Assembly: GCA_040830765.1 (NCBI GenBank)
Contig: JBFOMH010000017.1
Location: 192,001 to 256,000, forward strand
Length of the DNA: 64,000 nucleotides
Source of the DNA: Puniceicoccaceae bacterium
Lineage (GTDB): Bacteria; Verrucomicrobiota; Verrucomicrobiia; Opitutales; Oceanipulchritudinaceae
Reading direction: 5' to 3'
Part shown: piece by piece, positions 29,446-52,242 of the stretch
How the letters are laid out: each line of letters starts with the position of its first letter
Numbering within the stretch: the first letter of the stretch is position 1
Notes under the pieces: generated by a model
Databases searched by the model: none
What the model saw: only the letters and a program-made list of their open reading frames with translations
Told to the model about the DNA's origin: nothing
Translations under genes and position numbers: made by a program

Positions 29446-29500
29446 ACAACAGCTTTGTGAGTAATTCCCGTCCTAACTCAATTAGGACAGGGTAGGGTTA

Positions 29501-29540
29501 AGCCGCCACTTGGACTTGTTCTGGGTGGCGGCTATTTTTT
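29501..29540 (+). terminator. Rho-independent terminator between convergent genes
   Basis: Stem AGCCGCCAC/GTGGCGGCT followed by ATTTTTT. Confidence 0.75.
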
Positions 29541-29556
29541 CCGAAAAAGAGGAATC

Positions 29557-30876
29557 CTACCGGTCCCGCTGGAGAGGCTTTGCGGTTGAATCCAGCCAAG
29601 CCTGCAATTCGGCTTTCAGCTTGGAAACCTTCTCCGGTTGCATAGATGAAAGATCCTTACGGTCGGAAAGGTCTTCCCTGAGGTCGTAGAGTTCCGTCCG
29701 GTCGGTCCAGGCGATTATCTTGTCCCAGCCCTTGATGAGGACCCGGGAGTCAAGATTACTGTCGAGGTCGTTGAGACGGGAAAGGTCGATATCATGGGCA
29801 TAGTCCTCGACGATGACCCTGTCTCGCTTGGCGAGCCCATTCACATCCCGCAAGTCGAGGCCGGCCATTTCGCAGGGAATCTCAATGCCGGCGGCCTTGA
29901 GGATGGTCGGGGCAATGTCGATGTTGCTGACCAGGGTTACAGAGTCCCGCTGAGGGGTGACCTTCCCGGGATACTTAATCATGATGGGGGTGCGGATACC
30001 GTCCTCATAGGGCTCCCGCTTCGACCGAATGGAGCGCTCGGCCTGCTCCGGGTTGGAGACCCAGCCATTGTCGCAGGTGTAGATAATCATCGTTTCATCG
30101 GTGATCCCCTTTTTATCGAGATAATCCAGCACTTCTCCACAGACTTCATCGAACCACTCGATATTGGCCCAGTAGCGGGCGGTGGACTCATTCGGGGCGA
30201 CCTTCAAGTATTTTTCGACAAGCTCTGCCCGGGCATTGTGCGGGGTATGGGGAAGGAAAACCCCATACCAGACGAAGAACGGTTTTTGTTCTTCGAGGGC
30301 CTTGTCGACAAAGTCGTAATAGGGCTCATGGGTTGTCCGGCCAATTTCCAGACCGACATCACCATGGCGTCCGCCCTCAAGGGTCCTGCCGTGGGTCATG
30401 GCATCCGTGAATCCATGGTCGATTGGATTTTCTTCCCACCACTTGCCGGTTTGCAGGGTGAGGTAGCCATTGTCCTTCAGGAGGCGGACAAAGGAAGGTA
30501 ACTTGTGCATGGGCGCGGTCATTTTCGTCCGCCATTTGTCGAACAGCTCCTTGTTGTTGCGGTGGTGGACCTTGCCCGGTAGAACCGGGTCATTGCCGCG
30601 GATTAAGTGCTGATGCGGATGCATTCCGGTAACCAGGCTGGCCAGGGATGGCCGGCAAAGGGGTGCCGAAACGTAGCCGCGCTCGAAGAGCAGCGATTGA
30701 CTGGCTAGCTTGTCAAGGCGCGGGGTCGCCACTTGCTCGTGTCCCATGAAGCCATAGTCATTCCAAGTCTGATCATCACTGATGATCAAAACGACGTTGG
30801 GCGGCTTTGCGGAAACGAGGGATGCTGCGATAAGGAGACACGCAAGGAGAAGGAATGAATATACTTTCATTTTCAT
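29557..30876 (-). CDS. Secreted formylglycine-type (S1) sulfatase-like hydrolase
   Basis: PNVVLIISDDQ, TPRLDKLA, LCRPSLASLVTG, GKW, PHTPH and DNG motifs; signal peptide. Confidence 0.88.
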   Translation of the reverse strand: MKMKVYSFLLLACLLIAASLVSAKPPNVVLIISDDQTWNDYGFMGHEQVATPRLDKLASQSLLFERGYVSAPLCRPSLASLVTGMHPHQHLIRGNDPVLPGKVHHRNNKELFDKWRTKMTAPMHKLPSFVRLLKDNGYLTLQTGKWWEENPIDHGFTDAMTHGRTLEGGRHGDVGLEIGRTTHEPYYDFVDKALEEQKPFFVWYGVFLPHTPHNARAELVEKYLKVAPNESTARYWANIEWFDEVCGEVLDYLDKKGITDETMIIYTCDNGWVSNPEQAERSIRSKREPYEDGIRTPIMIKYPGKVTPQRDSVTLVSNIDIAPTILKAAGIEIPCEMAGLDLRDVNGLAKRDRVIVEDYAHDIDLSRLNDLDSNLDSRVLIKGWDKIIAWTDRTELYDLREDLSDRKDLSSMQPEKVSKLKAELQAWLDSTAKPLQRDR

Positions 30877-30905
30877 GGCTAAGGTGGGGAAACGTGCCGA
30901 CGGCA

Positions 30906-32645
30906 CTAGGCTTCTTTTGACTTGTTGCCGCTCTTGCGCAGGAGGACACCAATTCCCAGGACGCAGCCGCCACAGAACAGGAAGGCAAGCCGGCCGAACA
31001 TCGGGTTTGGGATCATGGAGAGCAGGAGAATAAAGCTGCCGAATCCCATGGCGACGCCCCCCATGAGGTGGGCCTGCTTGTAGTCCGTGGTCGTGCCCTC
31101 GATTTCGTCCTCCGTGATCGGTCGGCGCATCCGGTCGTTGAAGGATTCAATTTCCTTCCGGCGCTGTTCCGGGAGGCGGTTCCACCACAACGAGCTGAGG
31201 AGAAACCAGCTGCCACAAATGACAATGTTAACAAACACACTGATACCGGCCAGGTAATAGTTGACCTCCGCCCCTTCAATCGGGCGCCCGATGACCCCCT
31301 CGGCAAATTCAACATTAAAGAATGTGTTGATAATGAGAGAATTGCAAAATCCGATCACGGTCGTGGTCCATGCCGCCCATGGGGCCGGCTTGCGGAAGAT
31401 CATGACCAGCATCAGGGGAATGGTCATCGGGAACATGACCATGGAACCGAACCATTGCACCAGTTCGAATATCCCGACCGTCTTCAGACGGGTAATGTTG
31501 AGCGCGGCAATGATGATCAGGGCTCCCAGAAAGCAAGTCGTCAGCCGGCTGACAATGACCAGCTCCTTCTCGCTGGCCTTCGGTCGCAGGACCGGCAGAT
31601 AGAAGTTCCTGACAAAGATGCCCGCGTTACGGTTTAACCCGGTATCCATGCAGGAGACGGTGGCTCCCAGCATGGCGCAGATCATCAGCCCCATCATGCC
31701 CATCGGGAGCAGTTTCATCGCGACCGCGACATAGGCGGCCTCCTCCGGCTTGTTCAGCTGGGGAAACATGCCGGCCAGGTCGGGGAACATGATCGCTGCC
31801 GCCAGGGGTGGCGTAAACCAGACCAGGGGACCGAGATAGGAGAGAATGGCCGCCAGGGCCGCCGCCTTGCGCGCGTGCTCGGAGTTCTTGACGGCGAGGT
31901 AGCGTCCGGACTCGATGAGATTGTTACAGTTGATGAACTGCCGGACAATGTTGGAAATCAGCCAGAAGAGGAGCAGGCCGTTGGCAAAGGGGGCGGACAG
32001 GTCAAGATGCCCCTCCGGCATCTTGTCAAAGAACCCGGAAACACCGCCAACCTCATGCAGGGCCGCCACAGCTGCCACGATGGTCACTGGAATCATGACC
32101 AAAAGCTGGACGAAGTCGTTCGAGGAGGAGGCCCATGAACCGCCCAGCAGGGTGGAAATGATGACCACTGTCCCGGTGATGATGATAGCCCACTGGAGGG
32201 GTATGCCAAAGGCAAGGGAGACGAAAATACAAAGGCCAAAGAGCCAGATCGACCCGCCAAACACCCCGAACGGGACACTGAGCCAGGTGTAGAATTGCTG
32301 GCTGAACTTGTCGAAGCGCTCACGGACGGCTTCGATAGAGGTGATCACCCGTAACTGCCTCGACCGGGCAGCGAAGTAAAAGTAATTGATGGTGAATCCG
32401 ATGGCGTTACCAAGGTAGATGGTCAGGACGCCCCATCCCTCACTGTAGGCGCTTGATGCCGCACCGGTGAAGGTCCAGGCACTGAACTGGATCATGAAGG
32501 CCGAGGAACCGACCAGCCACCAGACCATCGTCCCGCCCCCGCGGAAGTAATCACTGGTGTTGGTGACAAATTTGGAGGTGAGGTAGCCGACTGTCAGGAG
32601 AAGGCAGAAGTAGGCTGCGATGACGATGTAGTCGTAAGGGGTCAT
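30906..32645 (-). CDS. Sodium:solute symporter (SSS) family transporter
   Basis: SDYFRGGG, WWLVGSSAFM and FSAWTFTG motifs with many TM segments. Confidence 0.88.
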   Translation of the reverse strand: MTPYDYIVIAAYFCLLLTVGYLTSKFVTNTSDYFRGGGTMVWWLVGSSAFMIQFSAWTFTGAASSAYSEGWGVLTIYLGNAIGFTINYFYFAARSRQLRVITSIEAVRERFDKFSQQFYTWLSVPFGVFGGSIWLFGLCIFVSLAFGIPLQWAIIITGTVVIISTLLGGSWASSSNDFVQLLVMIPVTIVAAVAALHEVGGVSGFFDKMPEGHLDLSAPFANGLLLFWLISNIVRQFINCNNLIESGRYLAVKNSEHARKAAALAAILSYLGPLVWFTPPLAAAIMFPDLAGMFPQLNKPEEAAYVAVAMKLLPMGMMGLMICAMLGATVSCMDTGLNRNAGIFVRNFYLPVLRPKASEKELVIVSRLTTCFLGALIIIAALNITRLKTVGIFELVQWFGSMVMFPMTIPLMLVMIFRKPAPWAAWTTTVIGFCNSLIINTFFNVEFAEGVIGRPIEGAEVNYYLAGISVFVNIVICGSWFLLSSLWWNRLPEQRRKEIESFNDRMRRPITEDEIEGTTTDYKQAHLMGGVAMGFGSFILLLSMIPNPMFGRLAFLFCGGCVLGIGVLLRKSGNKSKEA

Positions 32646-32869
32646 GATTCAGAATTTTGGATAGGATTGATTTTCATCAAGGCACTATCAGTACCGATAC
32701 TCCAGTGGTGGCTTTTCATAACTGTCTGATTGGGCGATGAATCGCGAACCGAAAGTTGTGCCAGCTGCCTTGCGATTTTGAAAGAAATTGCCTTGTTGAA
32801 TACTGGCAGTTAAAACGGTCGCAAAAGGGTCTGGATGACGCCAGACTGCAGTTAAACTATCTTTAGTAA

Positions 32870-35092
<2,223 letters not shown>

Positions 35093-37385: not shown

Positions 37386-40300
37386 CTAGAGTTCGGCATC
37401 TTCCACGCCGGCCGCATAGTCGAGGGCTGTTGAGAGGGGCAGGGTAGCCCCCTCCTGTACCTTGGCATTGAGGTCAACCCCTTGCAGCATTGCTCCGGCT
37501 TCATCGATTGCCTGGCCGACTCTTTTGGCGTCCGCTTCCGGCAGGGGAGCACCGATCGATTGCCGGATTGCCTTGGCAGCTCCAAAGAGGCGCAGGCTGC
37601 GGTCAGGTTTCTCCAGGTTAAGGGCGTTGAAAGCGAAGGTTTCAAGGATGAAGGCGAGGGAGCGCATATTGCCCAGTTCCCGTGCTACCCGCAGGCTTTC
37701 CAGCAGGTAGGCTTCACAAGCCGCTGCATCCTTTTGGTCGAGCGCTACTTCGGCGAGAGAGTTGTAGGTGTTGGCAATTTCCCCGCGGTCACCGACCTTC
37801 TGCAGGTATTCCATCGCTTTTTCGAGGTCCTTGCGGGCTCCGGCGAGGTCGCCGAGGTAGCGTTTGGCCATCCCGAGATTGTTGTAGGAGTTCCCGATGT
37901 AAAAGGGATCATTCAATTTCAGGCGGATGGCCAGGGCCTCTTCCTGGTAGTCCAATGCCTCGTCCAGCTTTCCCTGGAAGCGAAGGATAATGCCGGTATT
38001 GCTAAGGAGGCTGGTGACGTGTTTCTCCTGGCCCAGTTTGCGGCGGATTTCAATGCTTTGGGCATAGACTTCCCGGGCCTTGTCATACTGTCCGGTCTGT
38101 GCAGCGAGGGTGCCTTCACTGTGCAGGACGTCACCCATGCCTGATTCATCACCCAACGCGGTATAGGCTTCCCGGGCCTGCTCCAGCCATTTCCCTGCCT
38201 CCTCCATGGCACCGGTCTTGCGGTGAAGGTCCCCGATATCGAGGCGGCAATTGGCGATTTCCCCCTCCATTTGCAGGGATTCCGCCAGTTGCAGGGCATC
38301 CTCGTAGGTTTGCATGGACTCCTTCCAGTCGCCCGTTACTTCCAGAACCTTTCCGAGGTTGCTCAGGACAGGAACTTTATCCGGACCGTCAAGGAGTGGT
38401 AACAAGGACCTGTAATAACCAGCAGCGGTCCCAGCGGCATAGGCCTCGCGGGCGGCATCGCCCGCCAGGAGGAAATATTTCCGCTGCTTTTCCCGGTTCG
38501 GGCTGCGGCCGAAGTGGAAGGCCAGAAGATCGAGCATCTGGGTATTCTCCTCCCGGTAATGTTTCTCCAGAAAAAGGCCGATGGCTTCGTGCAGAATTGC
38601 CCGTAACTGTTTGGTCAGGCTTTCATAAGCGACCTCATGGATGACCACGTGCTTGAAGAGATAGGCCAGCTCAGCATCCTCTTCGTCGGGCGAGGTAAAG
38701 TCATTTTCGGTCAGGGCAGACAAGGCTTTCCGAACCTCCCGCTCGCCTCCCAAGTCGGGATAGACCCCCCAGACAACAGCGGCCCGGAAAATGCGCCCGA
38801 CCACACTGGCCACCTTCATGGTGATACGGGAATTCTCATTCAGCTGGTCCATCCGGCTGAGGACGAGTGCATACAAGCTGACCGGAAGATCGGCCTTCTC
38901 GAGGTCAGAGACAGAGGTCACTTCAATCTGCTCGTGATGCAGCCAGTTCATGACCTCATCGATGAAGAACGGATTGCCTCCGGTTTTCCGGGCAATGGTC
39001 TCAACAACTGCTTCCGGCACGTTCTGGTCGGCTCCAAATAGCTGGGCGAATTTCAGGCTGATTAACTCGGCTGCTTCCGCACTGTTGAATTCCGGTAATT
39101 CCAGGGAGACAACATAATCGAGACCGGACTCTGCCTCCGAAAAGAGTTCATTATCGTTATTGGGCCGGCGGGCGATGAGCAACATTACCGGCATCCGGGC
39201 GATGGCCTGGACGAGACTCCGAAATAATTCCCCGGAAACATCGTCAATCGCATGGGCATCCTCAAGGACGATAAGTATTGGATTGTCCTCGGAGGCATGG
39301 CGCAGGCACTCCACGAGCATACTCTCCAATGAAGCACGCCTTAGTTTCGCGTCGAAGGTCCGGGTCAATTCATTGTCAGCAATCTGAAGGTCCAAAACGG
39401 CACCAAGGAGGGGAAGGCGTGGCCCCAGGCGTTCATCAATTGTCTTCAGTTGGCGGCGCAGGGACGCTTCTGCTTCTTCCACGGGAATGGCCGGGTTAAG
39501 GCCAAAGAACTCGCGCCAGATTCGCCACCACGGGGCGTAGAGCGTGCTGTTGCCGAAGGTTTGGCACTCGCCGCTGTAAATCCGGAAGCCGGCAGACCGG
39601 GCCAATTTTGCCGTCTCCGCGACAAGGCGGCTCTTGCCCATTCCGGCATCGGCCTGCAGGGAAACCACCTGGCCAAACCCTTCCCGGGTCCGGTTCAGGC
39701 AATTTTCGATGGCCGCCAATTCCTCTTTTCGCCCGACCATGGGAAATGCCGAGCCTTCTCCTCCATCTGTTGCCAGGGAGCGCTCGGACTTGCCCTCCAG
39801 GCGAAAAACAGCCACTGGCTCGGACTTTCCCTTCACCCGGATATGGGGAAGGGTCTGCAGTTGAAAAGCCCGGCGTCCCTCCTTGTATGCCGGTTCGGAG
39901 ACGAGAATTTCCCCGGGGTCCGCCTTTCCCATCAAGCGGGCGGACAAGTTGACCTGGTCGCCAAGGACCCCATAGGTCCTTCTTGAAGGCCCGCCGTAGG
40001 CTCCGGTACGGGTGGAGCCCCGGCCAATGCCGATGCGGACAGCGGAGATGAAGTCCAGGTTTGCGGTCAGTTGTTGAATCTCCAGCGCGGCGGCCATGGT
40101 CCTCAATGTATCGTCCTCGTGGGAGATGGGGGCACCGAAGGCAGCATAAAGGAAGCTGCCTTTGTCACCAACCGTCAGCTGGTGGACAACCCCTTCGTAT
40201 TCATTGACGATCACCTGTACCCAGGAGAAAAAGGCATCCAGCTTTTTGTCTGCCTGCGAGTCCCCTTCAAAGTCGATGCCCTCGAACTTGACGAACATGG

Positions 40301-41078
40301 CCGTTGCCGGCCTCAGCTCGGTGAAGAATTCGCCCAATCCGGAGGAAATACGATTGCGGATGGCTGAAATAATCCACGGGTCAACCAGACCCGGCGGAAC
40401 TTCCAGAAAGCCGAGGTTTGGCCATGGCTCCTGCTCGACCGGGTTCACCAGCGAATGGATGACCCAGGCCAAAGTTTGGCCGGTGTCATCCTGCCGTTCT
40501 TCACCCAGCTCGGCATCACCGCCCAGGTTTTCGCGGGTTTCCGGGTCGATGAGCACTTCACCACGTTCTGCCAGTCCCTCGACTACGGCCACCCGGTAGA
40601 CCGGATCGCCGGCAAGGACATCGACCTTCTGGATGGATTCATCCCCAACCGCGAAGCGTTTAACCGTGCCGCTGGTCACCGCCGCCTTCAAACCAAGACC
40701 AATCGAACCGCCTCCAGGTGAGGGAATAGCCTGGAACGCTTCCATTCCTTTCTGCATCGCCAATGCGCATCCTACGGCCCGATGGCCGTCATCCTCCTCA
40801 AACCAGCAAGTAATGGCGTCTCCGGCGAATCCGATGACACTGCCCCGCACCCGGTCCACCTCCCCGATAAGCATGGCGTAAACCTCATTGAGGACCCGGG
40901 TAAGTTCCTCACCTCCCAAGCGCGAACCCAGATGAGCCTCAAAGGCCTCCGTCAAGGGGGTGAATCCCGAAATATCGGCAAACAATACCGTCCCTGCAGA
41001 CTGCTCCGGCAGGTCACCCGCCGAGGCCAAGGCCAACAGGCGGTCGCGGGGGACGTAAGCGTTGTAAGACTCCTTCAT
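37386..41078 (-). CDS. Class III nucleotidyl cyclase (two cyclase domains)-STAND AAA ATPase-TPR protein (soluble adenylyl cyclase-like)
   Basis: C1 motifs FADISGFT and FAGDA; C2 motifs GDKG and VNLSARLM; Walker A ADAGMGKS; Walker B LIVLEDAH; GGNPFF; C-terminal TPRs (YNNLG, LSNLG). Confidence 0.9.
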   Translation of the reverse strand: MKESYNAYVPRDRLLALASAGDLPEQSAGTVLFADISGFTPLTEAFEAHLGSRLGGEELTRVLNEVYAMLIGEVDRVRGSVIGFAGDAITCWFEEDDGHRAVGCALAMQKGMEAFQAIPSPGGGSIGLGLKAAVTSGTVKRFAVGDESIQKVDVLAGDPVYRVAVVEGLAERGEVLIDPETRENLGGDAELGEERQDDTGQTLAWVIHSLVNPVEQEPWPNLGFLEVPPGLVDPWIISAIRNRISSGLGEFFTELRPATAMFVKFEGIDFEGDSQADKKLDAFFSWVQVIVNEYEGVVHQLTVGDKGSFLYAAFGAPISHEDDTLRTMAAALEIQQLTANLDFISAVRIGIGRGSTRTGAYGGPSRRTYGVLGDQVNLSARLMGKADPGEILVSEPAYKEGRRAFQLQTLPHIRVKGKSEPVAVFRLEGKSERSLATDGGEGSAFPMVGRKEELAAIENCLNRTREGFGQVVSLQADAGMGKSRLVAETAKLARSAGFRIYSGECQTFGNSTLYAPWWRIWREFFGLNPAIPVEEAEASLRRQLKTIDERLGPRLPLLGAVLDLQIADNELTRTFDAKLRRASLESMLVECLRHASEDNPILIVLEDAHAIDDVSGELFRSLVQAIARMPVMLLIARRPNNDNELFSEAESGLDYVVSLELPEFNSAEAAELISLKFAQLFGADQNVPEAVVETIARKTGGNPFFIDEVMNWLHHEQIEVTSVSDLEKADLPVSLYALVLSRMDQLNENSRITMKVASVVGRIFRAAVVWGVYPDLGGEREVRKALSALTENDFTSPDEEDAELAYLFKHVVIHEVAYESLTKQLRAILHEAIGLFLEKHYREENTQMLDLLAFHFGRSPNREKQRKYFLLAGDAAREAYAAGTAAGYYRSLLPLLDGPDKVPVLSNLGKVLEVTGDWKESMQTYEDALQLAESLQMEGEIANCRLDIGDLHRKTGAMEEAGKWLEQAREAYTALGDESGMGDVLHSEGTLAAQTGQYDKAREVYAQSIEIRRKLGQEKHVTSLLSNTGIILRFQGKLDEALDYQEEALAIRLKLNDPFYIGNSYNNLGMAKRYLGDLAGARKDLEKAMEYLQKVGDRGEIANTYNSLAEVALDQKDAAACEAYLLESLRVARELGNMRSLAFILETFAFNALNLEKPDRSLRLFGAAKAIRQSIGAPLPEADAKRVGQAIDEAGAMLQGVDLNAKVQEGATLPLSTALDYAAGVEDAEL

Positions 41079-41258: not shown

Positions 41259-44200
41259 ATGCGCTCACGTCATGTTCTTTTCTGCTGCCTGAATTTCTTT
41301 TTTGGCATTATCGTTACACCGCTGCAAGCAGCTGAAATAAAAGTTGATTCCACCGCCGATCCAGGTCCCCTGCGGGACGCCATCATCGGCGCCGCGCCAG
41401 GCGACGTGGTGCTCCTGCGGGCTGAAGGAGAAGTCCTTCTCACATCCCCGTTGCCCGTTCGCCGCGGTATTCGAATTGAAGGACAAAGCGGTCCGTTGGC
41501 CCACACGCTCAAGGTGAGTGGAGATTTCCGACATTTCGATGTCAGCGGCCTTCCCGTTGACGAGACGGCGACCATTGCCCGGCTGACCCTTGAGGGAAAT
41601 CTGCCCGAAGATGCCGGGGGCGGTATCAGCAGCCGTTCCAATCTTCTTCTCGAAAGTGTCCAGGTGGTGGACAGCAGCGCAGAGCATGGCGGGGCGATTG
41701 CCCAAACGGGAGCATCCCTTGGTATTGATTTGTCCTATTTCGCCCGCAATGAATCTGAACTGGCTGGTGGATTGGAAGGCTCCGGGGGAGCTGTTTACGC
41801 TAGTGGAGCGGAGTTGACCGTTACCTCGACAGGATTTGTCAGCAACGTGGCCGGCAGTGGGGGGGCAATTGCCTTTGCGGGACCAGACTCCAGCCTTATT
41901 GTCCGCAGCAGCACATTTTCTGGAAATAGGGCTGTTATCTCAGGGGGTGCGGTATCGCTGGCCAGTGGAGATGGCCGATTCATCAACCTGACACTGGTCG
42001 ACAACAATAGTGGAGCAGATACGCTTTCCCACATAAATGCGGGTACCAATGCAATCACTGTGGGAAACTCACTGGTGGTTGGTGAGGGTGATGGGTTGCC
42101 TGGAATCCTCGGTGATCTGCAAGCAGAAGGAACGGGAACCAACCGTTCAGGCACAGACCTGTCCTTGGGTCTGGGAATGCCTGCCGGAGCCTATGGCGGT
42201 CTCCGTCCGACCTATCTCCTTCATCCTGGCAGGACGGCCCTCCCTGACGGGAGTAATTTGCTGCTTCCCGAAACCGACCGTGACCAACGCGGATTGGCCC
42301 GCTTTTCCGACGGTGATGGCGAAGGCGGGGACATTGTCGATCAGGGAGCATTTGAGGTGCAGCACTACAAGGTATCCGCCTTGCAGATCCGCGGTTCGGC
42401 CACGGGTGGCAAGGACGACGGCGGTTACGGAAATCCCTTTGATCCAAGTGATGATGCGGATTCCATCGCCTCGGCGGATGTCTTTGTCCAACTGACAAAC
42501 ACCAACAAAGCTGACATCGGGGATGCGGTGGGAGCCAATAATGCCGCTGGCGGTGGATCGGTTTCGTTTGATGAAAGAACCTGGGGAGGGCGTGTTGTTC
42601 TCAAGGGCCGGGAGCTGGAGGTTCGCCGGGATATTGCGATTTATGGACCCGGGGCGACCCGGATGTTTATTGACGGAAGTGCCAGTTCACCGGTCTTCCG
42701 GATTGGTGAAGCAGGCCAGGACGTCCTTGCCTACATGGAGGGCATCTCCATCGAGAACGGGCTCGCAGAGACCGGAGCCGGAATTGTTGTTCAGGATGGA
42801 GGGCGCGTTTCACTCAAGGAAGTACAATTAAAAGGTAATTCCGCCAGTCTGGCCGGCGGGGGGATTGCCGTCCTTTCCGGTGCGACGGATCTTTATCGGA
42901 GTTCCCTCATCGATAACCAGGCAGGTGACCAGGGTGGGGGCATCTTCGGTTCGATAGATTCCGTTATCGTCATTGATACGAGCACCCTTTCTGGAAATTC
43001 AGCAGGTTCCATGGGTGGAGCCGTGGCAAGCTCGGGTGACCTGACCATCGACTCCTCGACCATCGTGGCAAACGGAGCGAACTCCAATACCGGTCTCCTG
43101 GTTGAAGGGGCCACTGGCATTATCCAGAATACAATCCTCTCCCTCGGTACGGCCGATACCATCGATGCCGGCTCTGGGACATCGGTGAACTCAGGTGGAT
43201 ACAACCTTTCCGAGGCCAGCGAGGGCGGCTTCCTCCTTAATGCCACTGATTTGAGCGGTACTGATCCGGAATTAAACGTTCGCTCATTGAATGATGGTGA
43301 AACGCTTTCCCATGCCCCCAAGGGCACCAGTCCGGCCATTGATGCCGGGAGCAGCTATTTTCCGCTTGTCGATGGCCAGCTGGACCAGCCGGGTAATGAC
43401 CGGGTCAAGGGGGCCGCTATCGATATTGGTTCTGTTGAGCTGCAGAACGATTCTCCAACTATCGAATGTATCAGCGAACCGGATACAGAGTGTGTTTCCT
43501 CCTCCGGTGCGCTGGTTGCTGTTGACGTGCTTGTCGATGACGTCGACAAGGATGACCTGACTGTGACCTGGAGTGCGGCGGGTGTTTCTGAGACGCAGAA
43601 TGTTGCTGGGGCAGAGTTGCCGCTAGCCAGTCCATTGTCACAGGACTTGCTCCTGCCAATCGGTACGACAACTGTCACCATCACGGTTTCGGATGGATTT
43701 ACCTCAGCCAGTTGTGCGGTCATGGTCAAGGTGGCAGACACCACCGCCCCGACTGTAACCCTTTCCGGCCCAACCTCCATCAATCTGGAGTGCGGTATCG
43801 ATGCGTATGTTGAATATGGAGCGACGGCTTCCGATATCTGTGATCCGGGCCCCACTGTAGTCATTTCACCGATACTGGACAGTTACCCGGAAACCGGTAC
43901 CTATACGGTTACCTACACTGCAGCCGATGCGGCGGGCAACTCCAGCTCCGCAACCCGGACGGTCAACGTCGTGGACACGACGGATCCTGTCGTTACCCTC
44001 AACGGGAGCGCTCTCGTCACATTGCAGTGTGGGGTTGATACATTTTCGGATCCGGGTGCAACGGCCCTGGATGACTGTGAGGGAGCGTTGGACGTCGGCC
44101 TCCCGGTCCGGACGGACTTGGAGCTACTGACCGAGAACTCCGTCGAGACTTACCGGTTAACCTACAGTGTCACGGATTCCTCCGGGAACACCGGCAGTGC

Positions 44201-47200
44201 AAGCCGGGTTGTGGATGTCATCGACACTGTTGCCCCGTCCATATCCCTCAACCAGCCGGATTATGGAACGATTGTCTGTGGTGTGGACAGCTATGTGGAA
44301 TACGGTGCCAGTGCCACGGATAATTGCCAGACCTCCATTTCAGTGGGTGCCCCGATCCGGACGGACCTGCCATTGGCGAGTGTAGATTCCTTTGAAACCT
44401 ACTTGCTGACATACACGGCCACTGATGCCACCGGAAACGCTGCCTCGGTTTCCCGCACAGTTGACATCATCGACAACAGCGCCCCAACGTTTACTTCCGT
44501 TCCTGCAGACTCACAGCCCCTCACGGATGCGGGGTACTGCTTTGCCACGGTGGAGTTCGAAGCCGTTGCTACGGATACCTGTGATACCGATCTGACCATT
44601 ACCTACGACATCCTTCCCAACGAAGCTTATCCTGACGGCCTGAATGGGATCCAGTCTGGTCACCGCTTCCCGCCACTTCCCGATGGTCAGGGTGGGTGGT
44701 TGCCTCATGTTGTCCGCGTTACCGCCACCGATGATACCGGGAAATCCGTTTCCGACACCTTCGACGTGACGGTCGAAGACAAGTATAACAACTGCGCCTT
44801 CAATGTGGCCTGGCCCGCTTCCCTCGACCTGAGTTTCGAACAAAGGGATGGATTTGTTGAAGCAACCCAGCAGCAGTTGCTGGGGCTGACCGACCAGTCC
44901 CGCTGGTACAAGTTTTCGGTGACGCCAGGCAGCCGGGTGACGATTATCCTTTCCAGCCTCCCGGCCAATTATGACATCGTCGTTTACCGTGATATACGGG
45001 AAGAATTCGAACGTATCCTCGATCTTTTCCTCAATGGCACATCCGAGGAACAGGAGCTTTCCCTTCTCGGTGCGGAATTCGCCCCGGAAAGCTTCACTCC
45101 GGAAAGTTTCCTCCCCGAAAGCTTCCTCCCGGAAAGTTTCCTTCCGGAAAGCTTCCTCCCGGAGAGCTTCCTGCCTGAGAGTTTTCTCCCGGAAAGTTTT
45201 ATTGCCGAAGCCTTCTCCCCGGAAAGTTTTCTCCCGGAAAGCTTCATCCCGGAGAGCTTCCTCGTGGACAGTTATTCACCGGAAAGCTTCCTTCCGGAAA
45301 GTTTCCTTCCCGAGAGCTTCCTGCCTGAGAGTTTTCTCCCCGAAAGTTTTCTTCCAGAGAGTTTTATAGGAGAAGAGAATTTTACCCCCGAGTCGTTTAT
45401 CGCCGCCCAGCTGTCGAGCATGATTGCCTATTCCGCATTTCCGGGCGTGGCCAGTGAAGGAGTAACCATCAATACCTACACCACAAGCGGGGATTTCTAT
45501 GTTCGCGTGCGCGGAGCCAATGGTGTCTTTGACGGTATTAATCCGTTCACCTTGTCGGTCTTCATTGAGGAAGAAGTCTGTGGTGATCCCGATGGGGAAG
45601 GACCCTTGACGGGAGTCCAGGGTCCGGAGTCCTTTGCCGGAGCAGTTCCCCAGGGACTAGCTGGCGACTTCCAGACTCTCATCCTCTGGGATTCCTCCCG
45701 CACAGCTGGAAGCGATACCGACATCGCAACACTCGGCTCCATGTTGGAGACCTTCAAGCAGCGCACCGAGGTCAATGGTGAAATCATCGACCTGGCCCTT
45801 CAGGATCGCGTCGTGGAGGCAAATATCCAGGCGGATGCCTACCCAACCTGCCCATACGCCAAGAATCTCGTCGCTGAGGAAATAAAGGCTGTCATCGATG
45901 CCTGGAGGGATTCCACCACGGTCGACGGGGTTTCCTCCCTGAAGTACATCATGCTACTGGGTAATGATGATGTCATTCCGTTCTTCCGGACAACCGATCA
46001 GGCTTTCCTGGCCAACGAATCCAATTACGTCCCACCGGTGCGGGATAACAACCATTCCCAGTCCAGCTTGCGCTACGGGCAAATCCTGACCCAGGATCCT
46101 TATGGAGCAGATTGCGTGGTCAACCTTTCGACCGGTCCCTATCCCTACGGGGGACTTGCTGTGGGCCGTCTTGTGGAATCCGCTGCCGACATGATTGGCC
46201 AATTGGAAAACTACAACGCCTTGAGCGGTGGCCTGCTTCCCGTTCCGGATACCGCACTGGTTACCGGGTATGACTTCCTTGATGACCTTGCCGGTGCAGT
46301 CGAATTCGAATTGGAAGCAGCCCTTGGGAGCCAGATCGATACCTTGGTCGATGCCTCGACAACAGCCCCGGCCGATGGCTGGACAGCGACTGAGCTGGCG
46401 GACATTTTCCTCGGCTCCCATCATGACATCGTATTCCTTGCCGGTCACTTCAGCACCGGTAGCGCCCTGGCAGCCGACTACGAGACCCGTCTGACGGCAG
46501 CCCAGGTCAGGGAATCTGGTGCCGACTTGCTAAACACTTTAATCTTCAGCATCGGCTGTCACTCCGGTTACAACACCGTGGACAGCCATGCCATCAACGG
46601 GATTACCAAGCAGCCGGACTGGGCCCAGGCCTTTGCCCAGATGGGGGCCACCCTGATTGCCGGTACCGGCTACCAGTACGGTGATACCGAGTTTGTTGAG
46701 TACAGTGAACGCCTCTATCTGGAGATGGTGCGTCAGCTTCGGACCGGACCCGGCGCGGTGTCGGTTGGGGAAGCATTGGTCAATGCCAAGAAGAAGTACC
46801 TTGCCGAAACCGAATTGATGCGGGGGATTCATGAAAAATCCCTCCTGCAGGCGACGCTCTTCGGGTTCCCGATGCTGAAAATGAATGTGCCCGGTGACCG
46901 CATTACTTCTCCGTCAGGAAGTTCGGTGGTCCCTGCATCCCTTCCTGTGGTAGGCAGCAATCCAGGTCAATACCTCGGGCTTTCAGCTCATGACCTGAAC
47001 CTCGATTACAGCAGTCTGCCCCTTGTCGAGCCCAACACCTTGACCGTCTTTGATCCGGGAGCTGATCCTGGCGACAAGTCGGATGACACTGAATACACCT
47101 TGAAGTGGTATGAGGGTGGGAACGGCATTGTCAGTAATCCGATCGAGCCGGTGCGTCCATTGGACAGTTATTTCGTTTCAGTCCCCGGCAATCTGCTCCG

Positions 47201-49421
47201 CGGTGTCGGATTCCGGGGCGGTGATTATATCGATGAAAGCAATTTCCTCACTCTCACGGGTGCCCCGACTACGGAAATCCGCGGGGTCTTTGGTGAGTTC
47301 ATAACGGAAGTCTTCTATCCCGTGCAGCCATACAGCACCAACTATTTCGGCGCTATCTGTGGCGCTAACGAGGGCGAGCGGCTCAATGTCTACCGTACCC
47401 AGTACTACAACCCGGATGATGGAATCGAGGGCGGTACGCTGCGGAAGTACAGCAGCATGAACTTCCGTTTGTACTACAACAACAACCGGGAAACGTACTA
47501 CAATGCCAATGGGGATGCCATCATCCCGGCCTTGACGGCTCCACCCTCCATTTCCCGGGTTCTCTCATCAACTGATGGGTCATCGGTCGATTTCGATATC
47601 ACGGTGCTCGCTTCCCCGGCAGTCGGTGTCCAGGAAGTCTGGATTACCTACACCGGCATACCCGGCTCAGCCCTCCATGGCTCATGGCAATCCTTCGACC
47701 TGGGGCAAGGCGCTCTTCCGGACACAATGGTCTGGTCGGGGAACCTGCCTTTGCCCGAAGGCGTTCATCCCGACGAGGTCCGTTTCATGGTTCAGGCGGC
47801 ATCCGGCATAGGCCTGGTATCCCTGAAGAGCAACTTCGGCCAGTATTATCAGGTCGGTGTCGATGAACTGGCCGCGCGAATGACATCGGAGATTTCCATA
47901 ACGGAAGTTTTGCCCGCAGCGGCCGACTATGGCTACGGTGAGACCTTGACCGTCAAAGCCCTCCTGAAGGGTTACAGCGAGTCGAGCCAATCCTTTGAAG
48001 CCCTTGCCGGCAAGCGGGTGGGGATCCGGGTCGGTGCCTCGCGGGTTTCCGGGACGACCGGGGCGGACGGTATTGTCACCCTTGACCTTCCCCTTCAGGT
48101 GCGCCCTGCCACCGAGTTGCTGCAGGCCTATTTTACCGGGGACCTGCTCTTCAGCCCAAGCGCGGTTGATCAACCTATCACTATCACAAAGCAGGACACG
48201 GTTCTTGCTTTCGATGAAGGCATTCCGGTTCCACCCAATGAGATCTTCGGATCGGATGTGGTGGTTAGCCTGCGCGATGCCATTGGTACGCCCTTGAAGG
48301 AACGGACGGTCTTCTTCCTCGTCGATTACGGCTCCTTCCAGATTGGCAACTCTGTCATCACGGACATCGCCGGGCGGGCTGATTTGAGCGAAATCTTCCT
48401 GCCCTCTGGAAGTGCTACCATTACGGCCTACTTCAATGGCACTATTCCCTTGCCGGACGCCGATCCGGTGACGATTACCGATTTGCTCTACAAAGCCGCA
48501 ACCCCGGTCAGTATCGACGTTCTCCTGGATCAGCCGATCAGGGAGGATAGCCTGGGCTTCGATCCGCAACAGGTGGATATCTATTACAAGTCCAGTGGCA
48601 ACGGGAGAAACGCCATTCCTCTCTATGAGAACGCTTCCATAGCCGGTGACGTGGCTTTTAATGTACCGCTTCAGCCTGATGACTTGACAGCAGATCTTGA
48701 GAATCCGGATTACATCTCCGGCTATGTTTTTGCCACCCTGGCGGGTGAAGTTATCGTCGATGAACCGGTTACCCTGGACACGCGCGGCGACAACGGCAAT
48801 CACTGGACGACGACCAGTCAGCCCGGACAGGCAGCTGCCTACGTTGGCATTCACTGGTCGGATGCACCTCGCTTCGACAGTGCCCTGTCCGAGAGTCCAG
48901 GCCCCAGGATTTCCACTGTTTTCATCGGTAACAACTTCACTGAGTTCCGGTACGTCCCTCTACCGGGTACTGGCAGCTATACCACGACATTCCCCAATGG
49001 TGGACCAACGATCGTGGTCAAGCGGGGAGTTGTCGATCCTGAGGCCAGCGGTCTGGCGGAAGGAGAGTACGGTCTTGATGAGGGTGGTCTGGTCTTCACT
49101 GTCAAATTTGGACTGGAACCGGGAATGAGCTTCCTCACACGGGACAGTTCGAACAACAATCCGTTCCCGGATATCGAAGTGGAGGTGATTCCTGAGATTA
49201 ACTATCTCACCGAAGGCGGGCGCATGATCATCCGGCTTCAGGCGGTTCCCGGCATGCCGGAATTTCCGCCGGCATCGAATGCGGAACCCAACCTTTTCGA
49301 GTGTCGGTTTATCCTCGGGCCCGATGATGGTGTCCAGGTCCGCTCCATCGCACGGATTGGAGAAGGTCTTTACGCAATTCCCTGGACCAGTGAAGATCCC
49401 GGGCACAAACAATACCGGTGA
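41259..49421 (+). CDS. Giant (2720 aa) secreted modular protein: two beta-helix/choice-of-anchor-Q modules, Ig-like/HYR repeats, PPC-like domain with xPESF array, C25/caspase-clan peptidase domain, Ig-like domains
   Basis: Signal peptide; GGA(I/V) repeats and SPAIDAG...DIGSVE; DTTAPTVTL repeats; peptidase motifs YIMLLG, VGRL, AGH, GCHSG, GEALVNAK and LFGFP. Confidence 0.8.
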   Translation: MRSRHVLFCCLNFFFGIIVTPLQAAEIKVDSTADPGPLRDAIIGAAPGDVVLLRAEGEVLLTSPLPVRRGIRIEGQSGPLAHTLKVSGDFRHFDVSGLPVDETATIARLTLEGNLPEDAGGGISSRSNLLLESVQVVDSSAEHGGAIAQTGASLGIDLSYFARNESELAGGLEGSGGAVYASGAELTVTSTGFVSNVAGSGGAIAFAGPDSSLIVRSSTFSGNRAVISGGAVSLASGDGRFINLTLVDNNSGADTLSHINAGTNAITVGNSLVVGEGDGLPGILGDLQAEGTGTNRSGTDLSLGLGMPAGAYGGLRPTYLLHPGRTALPDGSNLLLPETDRDQRGLARFSDGDGEGGDIVDQGAFEVQHYKVSALQIRGSATGGKDDGGYGNPFDPSDDADSIASADVFVQLTNTNKADIGDAVGANNAAGGGSVSFDERTWGGRVVLKGRELEVRRDIAIYGPGATRMFIDGSASSPVFRIGEAGQDVLAYMEGISIENGLAETGAGIVVQDGGRVSLKEVQLKGNSASLAGGGIAVLSGATDLYRSSLIDNQAGDQGGGIFGSIDSVIVIDTSTLSGNSAGSMGGAVASSGDLTIDSSTIVANGANSNTGLLVEGATGIIQNTILSLGTADTIDAGSGTSVNSGGYNLSEASEGGFLLNATDLSGTDPELNVRSLNDGETLSHAPKGTSPAIDAGSSYFPLVDGQLDQPGNDRVKGAAIDIGSVELQNDSPTIECISEPDTECVSSSGALVAVDVLVDDVDKDDLTVTWSAAGVSETQNVAGAELPLASPLSQDLLLPIGTTTVTITVSDGFTSASCAVMVKVADTTAPTVTLSGPTSINLECGIDAYVEYGATASDICDPGPTVVISPILDSYPETGTYTVTYTAADAAGNSSSATRTVNVVDTTDPVVTLNGSALVTLQCGVDTFSDPGATALDDCEGALDVGLPVRTDLELLTENSVETYRLTYSVTDSSGNTGSASRVVDVIDTVAPSISLNQPDYGTIVCGVDSYVEYGASATDNCQTSISVGAPIRTDLPLASVDSFETYLLTYTATDATGNAASVSRTVDIIDNSAPTFTSVPADSQPLTDAGYCFATVEFEAVATDTCDTDLTITYDILPNEAYPDGLNGIQSGHRFPPLPDGQGGWLPHVVRVTATDDTGKSVSDTFDVTVEDKYNNCAFNVAWPASLDLSFEQRDGFVEATQQQLLGLTDQSRWYKFSVTPGSRVTIILSSLPANYDIVVYRDIREEFERILDLFLNGTSEEQELSLLGAEFAPESFTPESFLPESFLPESFLPESFLPESFLPESFLPESFIAEAFSPESFLPESFIPESFLVDSYSPESFLPESFLPESFLPESFLPESFLPESFIGEENFTPESFIAAQLSSMIAYSAFPGVASEGVTINTYTTSGDFYVRVRGANGVFDGINPFTLSVFIEEEVCGDPDGEGPLTGVQGPESFAGAVPQGLAGDFQTLILWDSSRTAGSDTDIATLGSMLETFKQRTEVNGEIIDLALQDRVVEANIQADAYPTCPYAKNLVAEEIKAVIDAWRDSTTVDGVSSLKYIMLLGNDDVIPFFRTTDQAFLANESNYVPPVRDNNHSQSSLRYGQILTQDPYGADCVVNLSTGPYPYGGLAVGRLVESAADMIGQLENYNALSGGLLPVPDTALVTGYDFLDDLAGAVEFELEAALGSQIDTLVDASTTAPADGWTATELADIFLGSHHDIVFLAGHFSTGSALAADYETRLTAAQVRESGADLLNTLIFSIGCHSGYNTVDSHAINGITKQPDWAQAFAQMGATLIAGTGYQYGDTEFVEYSERLYLEMVRQLRTGPGAVSVGEALVNAKKKYLAETELMRGIHEKSLLQATLFGFPMLKMNVPGDRITSPSGSSVVPASLPVVGSNPGQYLGLSAHDLNLDYSSLPLVEPNTLTVFDPGADPGDKSDDTEYTLKWYEGGNGIVSNPIEPVRPLDSYFVSVPGNLLRGVGFRGGDYIDESNFLTLTGAPTTEIRGVFGEFITEVFYPVQPYSTNYFGAICGANEGERLNVYRTQYYNPDDGIEGGTLRKYSSMNFRLYYNNNRETYYNANGDAIIPALTAPPSISRVLSSTDGSSVDFDITVLASPAVGVQEVWITYTGIPGSALHGSWQSFDLGQGALPDTMVWSGNLPLPEGVHPDEVRFMVQAASGIGLVSLKSNFGQYYQVGVDELAARMTSEISITEVLPAAADYGYGETLTVKALLKGYSESSQSFEALAGKRVGIRVGASRVSGTTGADGIVTLDLPLQVRPATELLQAYFTGDLLFSPSAVDQPITITKQDTVLAFDEGIPVPPNEIFGSDVVVSLRDAIGTPLKERTVFFLVDYGSFQIGNSVITDIAGRADLSEIFLPSGSATITAYFNGTIPLPDADPVTITDLLYKAATPVSIDVLLDQPIREDSLGFDPQQVDIYYKSSGNGRNAIPLYENASIAGDVAFNVPLQPDDLTADLENPDYISGYVFATLAGEVIVDEPVTLDTRGDNGNHWTTTSQPGQAAAYVGIHWSDAPRFDSALSESPGPRISTVFIGNNFTEFRYVPLPGTGSYTTTFPNGGPTIVVKRGVVDPEASGLAEGEYGLDEGGLVFTVKFGLEPGMSFLTRDSSNNNPFPDIEVEVIPEINYLTEGGRMIIRLQAVPGMPEFPPASNAEPNLFECRFILGPDDGVQVRSIARIGEGLYAIPWTSEDPGHKQYR
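45081..45398 (+). repeat. In-frame 15-bp tandem repeat encoding 18 xPESF pentapeptides plus degenerate units (IAEAF, LVDSY, IGEENF)
   Basis: Counted from DNA (consensus CTY CCN GAR AGY TTY); codons vary synonymously. Confidence 0.95.
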
Positions 49422-50409: not shown

Positions 50410-52242
50410 ATGAGCCTTTTTACCTCCTCTCTCAACAGTATCCGGCACCTCATTGAGGAAATCCACGAGAACCACCGGCATCTCTACGAAGGTGAGATCG
50501 CGGATTACATCCCGGAACTGACTCGGGCCAACCCGGACTGGTTCGGGATCGCCATCACGACCGTTGACGGTCGGCAGTACCTCGTTGGTGACACGGCCAT
50601 CGAGTTTACTATCCAGTCCGTTTCCAAGCCCTTTATTTATGGTCTGGCACTGGATGCCATCGGGCCTGAGGCGGTTCGGCACAAGATAGATGTCGAGCCG
50701 TCGGGTGAGGCCTTCAATTCGATCAGCCTGAAGCCGACAACGGGTCAGCCGATGAATCCGATGATCAATGCCGGGGCCATTGCGGCAACGGGCATGATCC
50801 CGGCAAGCTCGGCCGAGGAGCGGTTTGCCTTTATCCTGCAAAAATTCAGCGACCTGGCCGGATGCCAACTGACCCTCGATGACTCCGTCTACCGCTCGGA
50901 AAGCGAAACAGGATTCCGCAACCGGGCCATTGGCAACCTGATGCGCAACTTTGATATCCTCGAGGGAGAGGTCGATCCCATCCTTGAGGCTTACTTCATG
51001 CAGTGTGCCATCCTTGTCGATAGCAAGTCATTGTCTGTTATGGGAGCAACCCTTGCCAATGGGGGAGTGAATCCTCTCACCGGCGAACGGGTCCTGAGCC
51101 GGGCCTCTGTGGAGAAGGTAATCAGTGTCATGAGTACCTGTGGCATGTACGACTATTCTGGCAACTGGGCCTTTGAGGTCGGGATTCCGGCCAAAAGTGG
51201 CGTGGGTGGCGGCATCATCGGGGTACTGCCGGGACAGCTCAGTGTGGCGGTCTTCTCGCCCTTGCTGGACCCGAATTTCAACAGTGTCCGGGGTATCGCC
51301 ACTTTTCGGGACTTGTCACAGAGCTTTGGACTCCACTTGTTCAACCGGCCCTCATTGACCGACTATGTCATTCGTCGCTCTTACACTTTGGCGGAATTCC
51401 AATCGAGCCACTTCCGGCCCAAGGAGGCGCATGATATCCTCCAGAGAGAGGGAGAACGGGTACGCATTTTCGAACTGCAGGGTGATCTCTATTTCGGTGC
51501 CCTGGAAAGGCTTATCCATGCATACCTGCAGAACTTCGACAATATGGAGCGGGCGGTTATCGACCTGACCCGGATTGGGAGTATTGATGAAGCAACGCGG
51601 GAAATCGTCTTCCGTTTTGCCAGGCAGGGATTTGAGAAGGGGAAGCGTATCGTCCTCGTCGATCCGGGCGGGATTTTCACAGAAGAGGAACGACGCAGCC
51701 TGGTCCCGATGGCCTTTGTTTACAATGATTGCGACGAGGCCCTTGAGGATGCCGAAGAAAACCTTCTCGCCCAATTTGGGGCCCGTACGGAGGCCACCCT
51801 GGCCGTTCCATTCGAGGCCATGGACCTTCTCCAGGATATGGAGACGGCAGCCCTGGATGAGCTCATGGCATTATGCGAACGCCGTTCCATTTCAGCGGGT
51901 TCAACGATTATCAAGCAAGGCACTCCTCCCTTGGAGATGTACTTCCTTTCGAAAGGCACGGTTGGCGTGCTCCTGCCACGGGAGAATGGTAAAGACTTCC
52001 GTCAGGTCTCCAGTTTTACCCCGGGCATGAGTTTTGGTGAACTGGGATTCCTGCAGGGCCAAATCCGGACCGCAGATGTGAAAGCGATCACGGACGTCGA
52101 GCTCTATGCATTGGACCAAAAGGCTATCGGGGCATTCCGGAAGTCACATCCGGAAGGTTACCAAACGATTCTCCACAACGCCTTGCTTTCCATGTCCGAC
52201 CGCCTGCTGCGTGCGAACAGGGAAGTGGCGGCATTGAAATAA
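50410..52242 (+). CDS. glsA: Glutaminase A fused to STAS and cNMP-binding domains
   Basis: ADYIPEL, FTIQSVSKP (catalytic SxxK), NPMINAGAI and PAKSGVGGG; STAS-like ELQGDLYFG...IDLTRI; CNB motif FGELGF...RTADV. Confidence 0.9.
   Translation: MSLFTSSLNSIRHLIEEIHENHRHLYEGEIADYIPELTRANPDWFGIAITTVDGRQYLVGDTAIEFTIQSVSKPFIYGLALDAIGPEAVRHKIDVEPSGEAFNSISLKPTTGQPMNPMINAGAIAATGMIPASSAEERFAFILQKFSDLAGCQLTLDDSVYRSESETGFRNRAIGNLMRNFDILEGEVDPILEAYFMQCAILVDSKSLSVMGATLANGGVNPLTGERVLSRASVEKVISVMSTCGMYDYSGNWAFEVGIPAKSGVGGGIIGVLPGQLSVAVFSPLLDPNFNSVRGIATFRDLSQSFGLHLFNRPSLTDYVIRRSYTLAEFQSSHFRPKEAHDILQREGERVRIFELQGDLYFGALERLIHAYLQNFDNMERAVIDLTRIGSIDEATREIVFRFARQGFEKGKRIVLVDPGGIFTEEERRSLVPMAFVYNDCDEALEDAEENLLAQFGARTEATLAVPFEAMDLLQDMETAALDELMALCERRSISAGSTIIKQGTPPLEMYFLSKGTVGVLLPRENGKDFRQVSSFTPGMSFGELGFLQGQIRTADVKAITDVELYALDQKAIGAFRKSHPEGYQTILHNALLSMSDRLLRANREVAALK

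Follow-up and report, generated by a model that had tools for sequence, protein, structure and literature searches.

A concertedly evolving pentapeptide array next to a gingipain-like peptidase domain in giant proteins of Verrucomicrobiota and Chloroflexota

Results

The array and its host protein

A tandem array of pentapeptide units was analysed in a giant, putatively secreted protein encoded by a 64,000-nucleotide (nt) stretch of Puniceicoccaceae bacterium (contig JBFOMH010000017.1, 192,001-256,000; assembly GCA_040830765.1), hereafter the window, in whose positions all coordinates are given. The protein (2720 amino acids, from a single open reading frame (ORF)) starts with a hydrophobic, signal-peptide-like N-terminus, as judged by eye. 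In it Pfam and NCBIfam recognized PMP and choice-of-anchor-Q beta-helix repeats, HYR plus three Bact_surface_Ig-like domains preceding the array region, and Big_1/Big_3_5-like domains after it; a conserved C-terminal extension comes after the C25-like peptidase. To the array itself the two libraries gave no name, either in the window protein or in 32 relatives. The gene is divergent from one that encodes a protein with cyclase, STAND ATPase and TPR regions (Table 1).

In the in-frame translation, 18 exact PESF units stand in 5-residue register over residues 1276-1380 (45084-45398), with eight starting at residues 1276-1311, three at 1321-1331, six at 1341-1366 and one at 1377, the last coming after the 6-residue unit IGEENF. 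The series is interrupted by IAEAF, LVDSY and IGEENF, and the register of the family places the array start one unit earlier, at LGAEF (45066). Over 45083-45361, Tandem Repeats Finder reported a period of 15 (16 copies, score 147; 18.1 copies, score 97) and a period of 30 (8.9 copies, score 222). The 13 identical PESFL units of the window are written in 11 DNA versions with a mean pairwise difference of 2.74 nt of 15, while in two orthologues the identical-peptide units come in 11 of 14 and 14 of 14 different DNA versions. The original prediction, made from the letters of the sequence, had described these units, their three interruptions and an extra GPESF, correctly in each detail checked, and had argued from synonymous codons for protein-level selection rather than recent slippage, an argument that the codon data of the window and of 67 arrays (below) bear out. 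As an equivalent array sits at the same place in orthologues and distant relatives, the array is far above chance.

The deviant units IAEAF (45204-45218) and LVDSY (45264-45278) hold indices 10 and 14; both indices are also deviant in relatives, and index 14 retains Asp in several E-type arrays of both phyla. The lone GPESF is shared with an 83%-identical orthologue (L003) and is absent from a second orthologue (L004, in genome G007) and from the aligned Chloroflexota relatives. Two short ORFs that overlap the array in other frames, at 44971-45369 (+) and 44984-45247 (-), are by-products of the repeat.

Table 1. Features of the array locus, with their positions in the window.
Feature	Position	Strand	Evidence
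Divergent partner gene: nucleotide cyclase (two cyclase-homology stretches), AAA_16 STAND ATPase, TPR	37386..41078	-	Pfam, hydropathy
Giant secreted multidomain protein P0001, 2720 amino acids, single ORF	41259..49421	+	ORF list, Pfam, NCBIfam, relatives
N-terminal half of PPC/collagen-binding-type beta-sandwich (piece residues 7-56)	44838..44987	+	Weak PF04151 match, pLDDT 83-94
Two short helices leading from the sandwich into the array (piece residues 59-72, 75-86)	44994..45077	+	AlphaFold, alignment A3
Pentapeptide array: 20 in-register units from LGAEF to LPESF, then IGEENF and TPESF; 18 exact xPESF	45066..45398	+	Tandem Repeats Finder, translation, pLDDT <50
Return helix FIAAQLSSMIAYS and C-terminal half of beta-sandwich	45387..45569	+	AlphaFold, Foldseek
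Lone GPESF in sandwich-peptidase linker, residue 1455	45621..45635	+	Translation, orthologue comparison
C25-like (gingipain-fold, clan CD) cysteine peptidase domain	45675..46919	+	Foldseek, conserved His/Cys, pLDDT mostly >90
His1730 (AGHFS), codon	46446-46448	+	Translation
Cys1767 (GCHSG), codon	46557-46559	+	Translation

A predicted loop in a split beta-sandwich

A 760-residue piece of the protein (window 44820-47099) was modelled by AlphaFold from a 53-row alignment, with a mean predicted local distance difference test score (pLDDT) of 78. In this model a beta-sandwich is formed with confidence from piece residues 7-56 and 201-250, helices occupy residues 59-86 and 190-200, and the array (residues 83-185) is left at a pLDDT of 34-39. 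A second model, of the canonical relative L017 (SPDAF x19) with an in-register alignment of 34 arrays, gives the same picture (array pLDDT 32-40). Across the two runs the pLDDT of the sandwich is 76-94, and the array shows local one-turn helices, one per PxxF, with no strands predicted in either run. The helices that precede the array end in a family-invariant AEF-A junction, in which E92, F93 and A94 are invariant in alignment A3.

The PPC profile PF04151 matched the window piece at E 0.0043 and 18.3 bits (cut-off 25.9), over profile positions 1-32 of 70 only, and exceeded the cut-off in one of 32 relatives (P0239, 28.1 bits). When the sandwich of the second model was searched by Foldseek, the matches were the collagen-binding domains of ColG/ColH and the collagenase PPC domain (5sv5, template-modelling (TM) score 0.63; 1nqj, 0.59-0.70; 3jqw, 0.61; also 5iku), at E 1e-2 to 7e-2 and probability 0.97-1.0, in alignments of ~230 columns that run across the insert and take in both halves. 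Since a confidently modelled sandwich flanks the array and these fold alignments cover both halves, the array is read as a loop insertion: it is probably a flexible loop of ~100 residues that splits a PPC/collagen-binding-type beta-sandwich directly before the gingipain-fold domain. That the flanks are two halves of one PPC-type sandwich had been proposed from the sequence, and both the weak N-terminal profile match and the models agree with it. A much shorter loop is tolerated, given that the natural relatives L056 and L085 carry only 6-8 units.

Compared by sequence with solved structures, the window piece found nothing relevant, and the profile of alignment A1 had a sole match, to the DotG/IcmE repeats (E 5e-4), with no gingipain. 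The ESM Atlas returned weak leads (0.90-0.92), some of them in PPC-labelled clusters.

A gingipain-like peptidase domain follows the array

The domain after the array, which the original prediction had taken for a cysteine peptidase, was matched by Foldseek to gingipain RgpB (4ief_D, E 1.4e-12, TM score on target 0.58; 1cvr, E 3.7e-12, 0.60), with further matches to 4rbm (E 1.3e-7) and PorU (6za2_B, E 6.1e-4); the matches are headed by gingipain R, followed by Kgp, separase, CHAT and caspases. His1730 follows the strand at piece residues 537-540 and Cys1767 the strand at 574-578 of the AlphaFold model. The order of His before Cys, each placed after a strand, is that of clan CD, and the two residues are by position the predicted catalytic dyad. 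The Cys is invariant and the His near-invariant in alignment A1, and both are present in 252 of 253 relatives, with Arg in place of His in the remaining one. The Pfam profile of the C25 family (PF01364) matched neither the window protein nor its 493-residue peptidase piece, even at E<=10; it scored above its 23-bit cut-off in five of 32 relatives and at 22.5 bits in one more, and is precomputed on several relatives.

A large family retains the array in two phyla

An exhaustive profile-free search returned 3351 cluster representatives at E<=1e-3 and 982 at E<=1e-30, and a separate search returned 999 relatives. Their source names are generic ('CSLREA domain-containing', 'choice-of-anchor Q', 'Ig-like domain-containing'). 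The closest relatives belong to Puniceicoccaceae/Opitutales and to 'Verrucomicrobiia bacterium DG1235', and the bulk of the remainder to Anaerolineae and other Chloroflexota. At least five period-5 units occur at the same spot in 250 of 253 relatives, the exceptions being one degenerate Arg-type array and two N-terminally truncated records. The original prediction had held that it would fail if homologues lacked a repeat here and its deletion altered neither processing nor signalling; in the homologues the repeat is present, at an unchanged position and with a period of five residues, and the unit differs in sequence.

Among the 253 relatives the median array has 20 units, of which the commonest makes up 82% (median), and 81 different main units were counted. 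The unit consensus is S (79%), P (94%), D/E/S (43/21/21%), A (61%) and F/Y (83/15%); the aromatic residue, the small residue next to it and the Pro are constant, and positions 3 and 4 vary. The xPESF array is thus the local form of a family-wide S-P-D/E/S-A-F/Y cassette of ~20 units, and it is genuine and under selection.

Species-representative genomes of Chloroflexota and Verrucomicrobiota yielded 516 loci, from which 79 were retained for locus analysis. Within the genus, the giant gene is present in 3 of 13 genomes (the window genome counted), with LPESF, IPESF and SPESF as the units. Repeat matches in three further genomes (G036, G008 and G039; E 3e-7 to 7e-4) were rejected as low-complexity sequence in unrelated ORFs. 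Two loci of G036 (L005 and L008) encode unrelated proteins with long acidic DDGKD/TDD repeats, matched via low complexity on the opposite strand.

Units of one array share their type and change it together

Units with the same peptide differ by a median of 2.98 nt of 15 across 67 arrays, and the main unit is found in two or fewer DNA versions in just four arrays. Because identical peptides are encoded by scrambled codons, ongoing DNA homogenisation is not the cause of the likeness among units; it is selection that holds each unit to the peptide sequence of its neighbours. Identity at positions 3 and 4 is 0.82 and 0.78 within an array, compared with 0.34 and 0.42 between arrays.

A switch of unit type was captured in the sister species of loci L019 and L026, whose genes are 84.9% identical over 5052 nt (support 100 in a quick tree). 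Their arrays have the same length and the same deviant unit at index 14, and 17 of 18 canonical units are SPEIF in one sister and SPDIF in the other; outside the array D and E are swapped at 2 of 150 sites (binomial 2e-31 if sites are independent). On a FastTree phylogeny of 254 relatives, unit position 3 switched between D and E at least 13 times and between acidic and neutral at least 14 times. The unit type has therefore changed in concert many times in evolution. Uniform units within arrays together with concerted switching imply a sequence-specific reader of each unit. The two sister arrays (L019:5329-5703 and L026:10166-10540) are positionally orthologous, with Ser codons exchanged between AGY and TCN in nine units, and the change in the array is much greater than in the remainder of the gene.

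Array length is likewise constrained: exactly 20 units were found in 34 of the 64 arrays clear of contig ends (19-24 units in 52 of them) and in 69 of 208 distinct arrays, although the shortest array has 6 units and the longest 59. Departures from the main unit come back at the same indices: SPDAY stands at unit 6 of S-type arrays, and the E-type arrays of the window, L019, L028/31/41/42 and L048 have a D-containing unit at index 14, so that the units hold some positional identity.

Two other array layouts were seen. The longest array (P0007, residues ~190-515; 59 aromatic units) consists of SPDAF blocks parted by a recurring SEDEAAPDAF, which suggests block duplication. Arg-bearing units (APGSR/SPDEF, ARGART, APASR, PRARSP and IPSRF) alternate with or replace the usual ones in L063, L089, P0058, P0118 and P0130, and would serve as gingipain-type cleavage sites if the peptidase were Arg-specific.

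A cyclase-STAND-TPR gene is the conserved partner

The product of the divergent gene has no signal peptide and no membrane segment by hydropathy, and is thus predicted to be cytoplasmic. A full-length cyclase-AAA_16-TPR homologue directly adjoins the giant gene in 45 of the 79 loci, in two phyla, at a median gap of 145 bp (maximum 1758 bp), and in four arrangements (28 downstream on the same strand, 8 convergent, 6 divergent and 3 upstream on the same strand). Among the other 34 loci, the partner is partial in nine, absent in eight (with at least 4.5 kb of flank on each side) and not assessable in 17; three of five genomes searched that lack an adjacent partner carry a full-length homologue elsewhere. 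Both same-genus orthologous loci retain the pair of giant gene and partner. Of 41 related genomes, four yielded a full-length partner, namely all three with the giant gene and one fragmented genome. Hence the TPR gene that the original prediction had pointed to as a neighbour is a conserved partner, and the giant gene and the cyclase-STAND-TPR gene form a conserved two-gene module in two phyla.

The fragmented genome (G003) is of the same genus, 84% complete and in ~420 contigs; its partner gene (G003:C126:45-3035) is 43% identical, lies on a 3-kb contig and has one internal TAA. No giant gene was found in it, and the repeat-bearing gene may be unassembled.

Read by eye, the 180-bp divergent intergenic region has no obvious CRP-like palindrome. 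No peptide importer occurs among the conserved neighbours of the giant gene. Downstream of it, at 50410-52242 (+), is a gene for a glutaminase fused to a cyclic-nucleotide-binding domain, a homologue of which lies near the giant gene in four loci; this protein is a possible target of the neighbouring cyclase. The neighbourhood also has, at 26797-35092, genes for a CBM9-like protein, for a sulfatase, for a sodium:solute symporter and for a catalase-peroxidase-like protein, with no link to the array seen.

Candidate readers of the units

Co-variation of the repeat with the TPR region, raised by the original prediction as a check, was not detected. For 40 of the 45 pairs (L046, L054, L055, L064 and L089, with cut or unclear arrays, were left out), TPR distance was compared with unit distance given the distance of the peptidase domain, and TPR divergence did not follow unit type once phylogeny was allowed for (partial Mantel r 0.084, p 0.22, n=40); the same test gave ~0 for the CHD2 and NTPase regions. 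Nor was TPR divergence in excess between L019 and L026 (0.056, versus 0.048-0.114 in the remainder of the partner). A complex prediction of the partner TPR (A2 residues 860-1229) with the array (A1 residues 75-205) scored 0.00, which counts neither way.

On the side of the peptidase, the residue five after the catalytic His (1735) is S in 101 of 115 D-type arrays and G or R in 39 of 60 E-type arrays. At residue 1585, 163 of 175 acidic arrays have A, and 62 of 70 neutral ones have G. An earlier site-wise Fisher scan with unmatched distances was discarded as confounded. In the distance-matched scan of the 254 relatives, residues 1872 (10/20 versus 1/53) and 1735 (17/20 versus 15/53) passed Bonferroni correction for D/E switches; residue 1872 changes only three times on the FastTree phylogeny. 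These associations are leads, not findings.

Discussion

A loop possibly read by the adjoining peptidase

We tentatively read the loop as a tandem series of sites that the adjoining peptidase recognises and cleaves. The units appear to be read one by one by a sequence-specific partner, and the peptidase domain next to them would be the most likely reader. The loop would then present substrates or pseudo-substrates in tandem, with the cut probably falling on the C-terminal side of the aromatic, in the frame F/Y followed by S/A-P. Because the aromatic, the small residue next to it and the Pro are constant and positions 3 and 4 are variable, the former would make up a processing frame and the latter a species-specific part. 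Processing would open or shed the protein, freeing up to ~20 identical pentapeptides, and the cyclase-STAND-TPR neighbour would be part of the same module. The position of the array is, we presume, comparable to that of the gingipain pro-region.

Several points weigh against cleavage by this peptidase. Such cleavage is something that we infer, and AlphaFold does not confidently place the loop in the active site. Characterised clan CD peptidases are known to cut after Arg, Lys, Asp, Asn or Leu, and an aromatic residue at P1 would be a novelty. The window protein is not matched by the Pfam C25 model. There are no spacers between the units, and the modal number of 20 units and the fixed-index deviants, which a simple substrate array does not need, suggest positional or structural roles. 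Finally, the associations between peptidase residues and unit type were not significant in independent-pair sign tests (FastTree, 6-7 pairs; median p 0.125 for residue 1735 and 0.25 for residue 1585).

Readings without cleavage by the peptidase or with a released signal

The same length and position data are at home in a loop that is never cut, a reading that we regard as possible though on the unlikely side. The loop would be a flexible, turn-rich multivalent platform or an entropic or elastic cell-surface element, the units of which bind an external periodic or oligomeric partner or each other; RNA polymerase II C-terminal domain heptads and elastomeric pentapeptide repeats follow a similar logic. 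Low pLDDT with a one-turn helix at each PxxF is consistent with such a loop, as are a modal length that stands at exactly 20 units for several unit types and in both phyla, and deviants at fixed index, such as the D-containing unit 14, that give units a positional identity. A mere spacer, however, should tolerate mixtures of D with E and of F with Y, whereas the units are uniform and switch in concert. We know of no external partner, the length of the array is not fixed (6 to 59 units), and the constant pairing with the peptidase domain and with the cyclase-STAND-TPR gene would be left unexplained.

That partner gene is central to a further reading, in which the array is a multi-copy precursor; we consider it unlikely. 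Here the C25 domain would excise and possibly cyclise ~20 pentapeptides, which would be taken up and bind the TPR of the STAND-cyclase to elicit a cyclic nucleotide, with the unit types as dialects. The uniformity of units in each array, their divergence between species and their repeated concerted switches would suit such a signal. So would the adjacency of the full-length partner gene in 45 of 79 loci and four orientations and in both same-genus orthologous loci, its restriction to 4 of 41 related genomes that include all three with the giant gene, and the predicted cytoplasmic location of its product. Yet the TPR does not diverge with unit type (the partial Mantel result above) or in excess in the switching sister pair, no peptide importer is found among the conserved neighbours, conserved copy number and positional deviants are unexpected for a simple precursor, and control of the giant gene, or the sensing of proteolysis products in general, would be an equally plausible task for the cyclase. 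Extended to the whole module, the same idea would make the giant protein and its neighbour an unrecognised cell-to-cell or self-sensing system, in which the protein's own cassette is cut to pentapeptides that are sensed by the TPR with a cyclic-nucleotide output. The peptides might be cyclised by transpeptidation, as by other clan CD enzymes, and concerted unit switches would be changes of signal dialect; we hold this system to be improbable as well.

Very unlikely, in our judgement, is a beta-solenoid related to the Rfr pentapeptide-repeat proteins, with four units per coil and five coils, that folds perhaps only extracellularly or with a cofactor. The number of 20 units equals 5 x 4, and the fewest deviants fall on one of the four unit phases (28 versus 42-55, in counts uncorrected for relatedness). 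Sub-threshold Pentapeptide_4 matches (PF13599, 17.9-32.5 bits; cut-off 38) occur in 4 of 32 homologues, and the profile match to the DotG/IcmE repeat region (E 5e-4) is weak. Against these stand the two AlphaFold runs, one of them with the in-register alignment of 34 arrays, in which the array stays at pLDDT 32-40 without strands or fold; this disfavours the solenoid that the original prediction had listed among its options, of which the other two, a multi-core precursor and an autoinhibitory or bait loop, are still possible readings. Moreover, the acidic residue would sit at the inward-pointing i-2 position of the Rfr consensus, and the window protein has no Pfam pentapeptide match. A functionless product of replication slippage or an assembly artefact, which the short-period tandem repeat as such might suggest, is hardly credible given that identical peptide units have scrambled codons (4 of 67 arrays alone with two or fewer DNA versions) and that the array position is conserved across two phyla.

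Significance

C25-type secreted peptidases with PPC-type accessory domains are of a known kind; what sets this family apart is an unusual evolutionary signature and a new gene partnership. Full-text literature searches returned no description of the array, and none of the papers listed on C25/pentapeptide/Chloroflexi or on CSLREA concerned the array family. The excerpts of PMC7159879 on gingipain, pentapeptide repeat and cyclase terms contain nothing on the two-gene module. The family is very large (over 3000 sequence clusters, 516 loci) and common in filamentous Chloroflexota and in Verrucomicrobiota. Its mode of evolution is unusual, with ~20 units kept identical as peptides without DNA homogenisation and repeatedly switched together. 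Such a pattern implies that the units are read by sequence, and it opens their function to testing. For the two-gene module, in which a secreted gingipain-like protein is paired with a cytoplasmic STAND nucleotide cyclase, no counterpart has been described. Should the units be released, a new peptide-signal route and a new clan CD specificity would be at hand; should they not be released, the array would represent a new kind of extracellular multivalent repeat.

Comparison with known systems

The gingipains RgpB and Kgp and the PorU sortase (Porphyromonas; C25, clan CD) share the catalytic fold, with His before Cys at strand ends, and gingipains are likewise secreted multidomain proteins with Ig-like domains after the catalytic domain. 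The family of the window protein differs from them in a sequence similarity at or below the Pfam limit, in Phe rather than Gly after the His of the window protein, and in its occurrence in Chloroflexota and Verrucomicrobiota. In place of the gingipain prodomain, the peptidase here has on its N-terminal side a PPC-type sandwich into which a 100-residue repeat is inserted, and that prodomain is not in the top 50 fold matches of the sandwich. With the PPC (PF04151) and collagen-binding domains of clostridial collagenases the sandwich shares its fold and its role as an accessory to a secreted peptidase, but it lies before the peptidase instead of after it, is interrupted by the array and scores below the Pfam cut-off.

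The pentapeptide repeat proteins (Rfr; MfpA/Qnr, DotG) have in common with the array the 5-residue period and a central aromatic or aliphatic residue followed by a small one, with weak profile similarity. The array, by contrast, has Pro in every unit, acidic and small residues in reversed order and far more uniform units, and for it no right-handed quadrilateral beta-helix of the Rfr type was predicted in the two AlphaFold runs.

In signalling, peptides act on TPR proteins in the Rap/Phr (RRNPP) systems, and multi-copy precursors are known from yeast alpha-factor and fungal UstA. Like these, the locus has tandem identical units of pentapeptide size, a protease at hand and an adjacent TPR gene, and the array displays the multi-core precursor feature of tandem identical core peptides under selection. 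It differs from them in being a spacerless loop within a 2720-residue protein with no linked importer gene, and from RRNPP in that the neighbouring TPR protein combines a STAND ATPase and a nucleotide cyclase in one chain. The partner gene itself we take to resemble the mycobacterial Rv0386-type STAND proteins of cyclase-ATPase-TPR architecture. It likewise has Guanylate_cyc, AAA_16 and TPR by Pfam, and is distinguished from that type by two cyclase-homology stretches, by the lack of a detected LuxR-type helix-turn-helix and by its linkage to a giant C25 gene.

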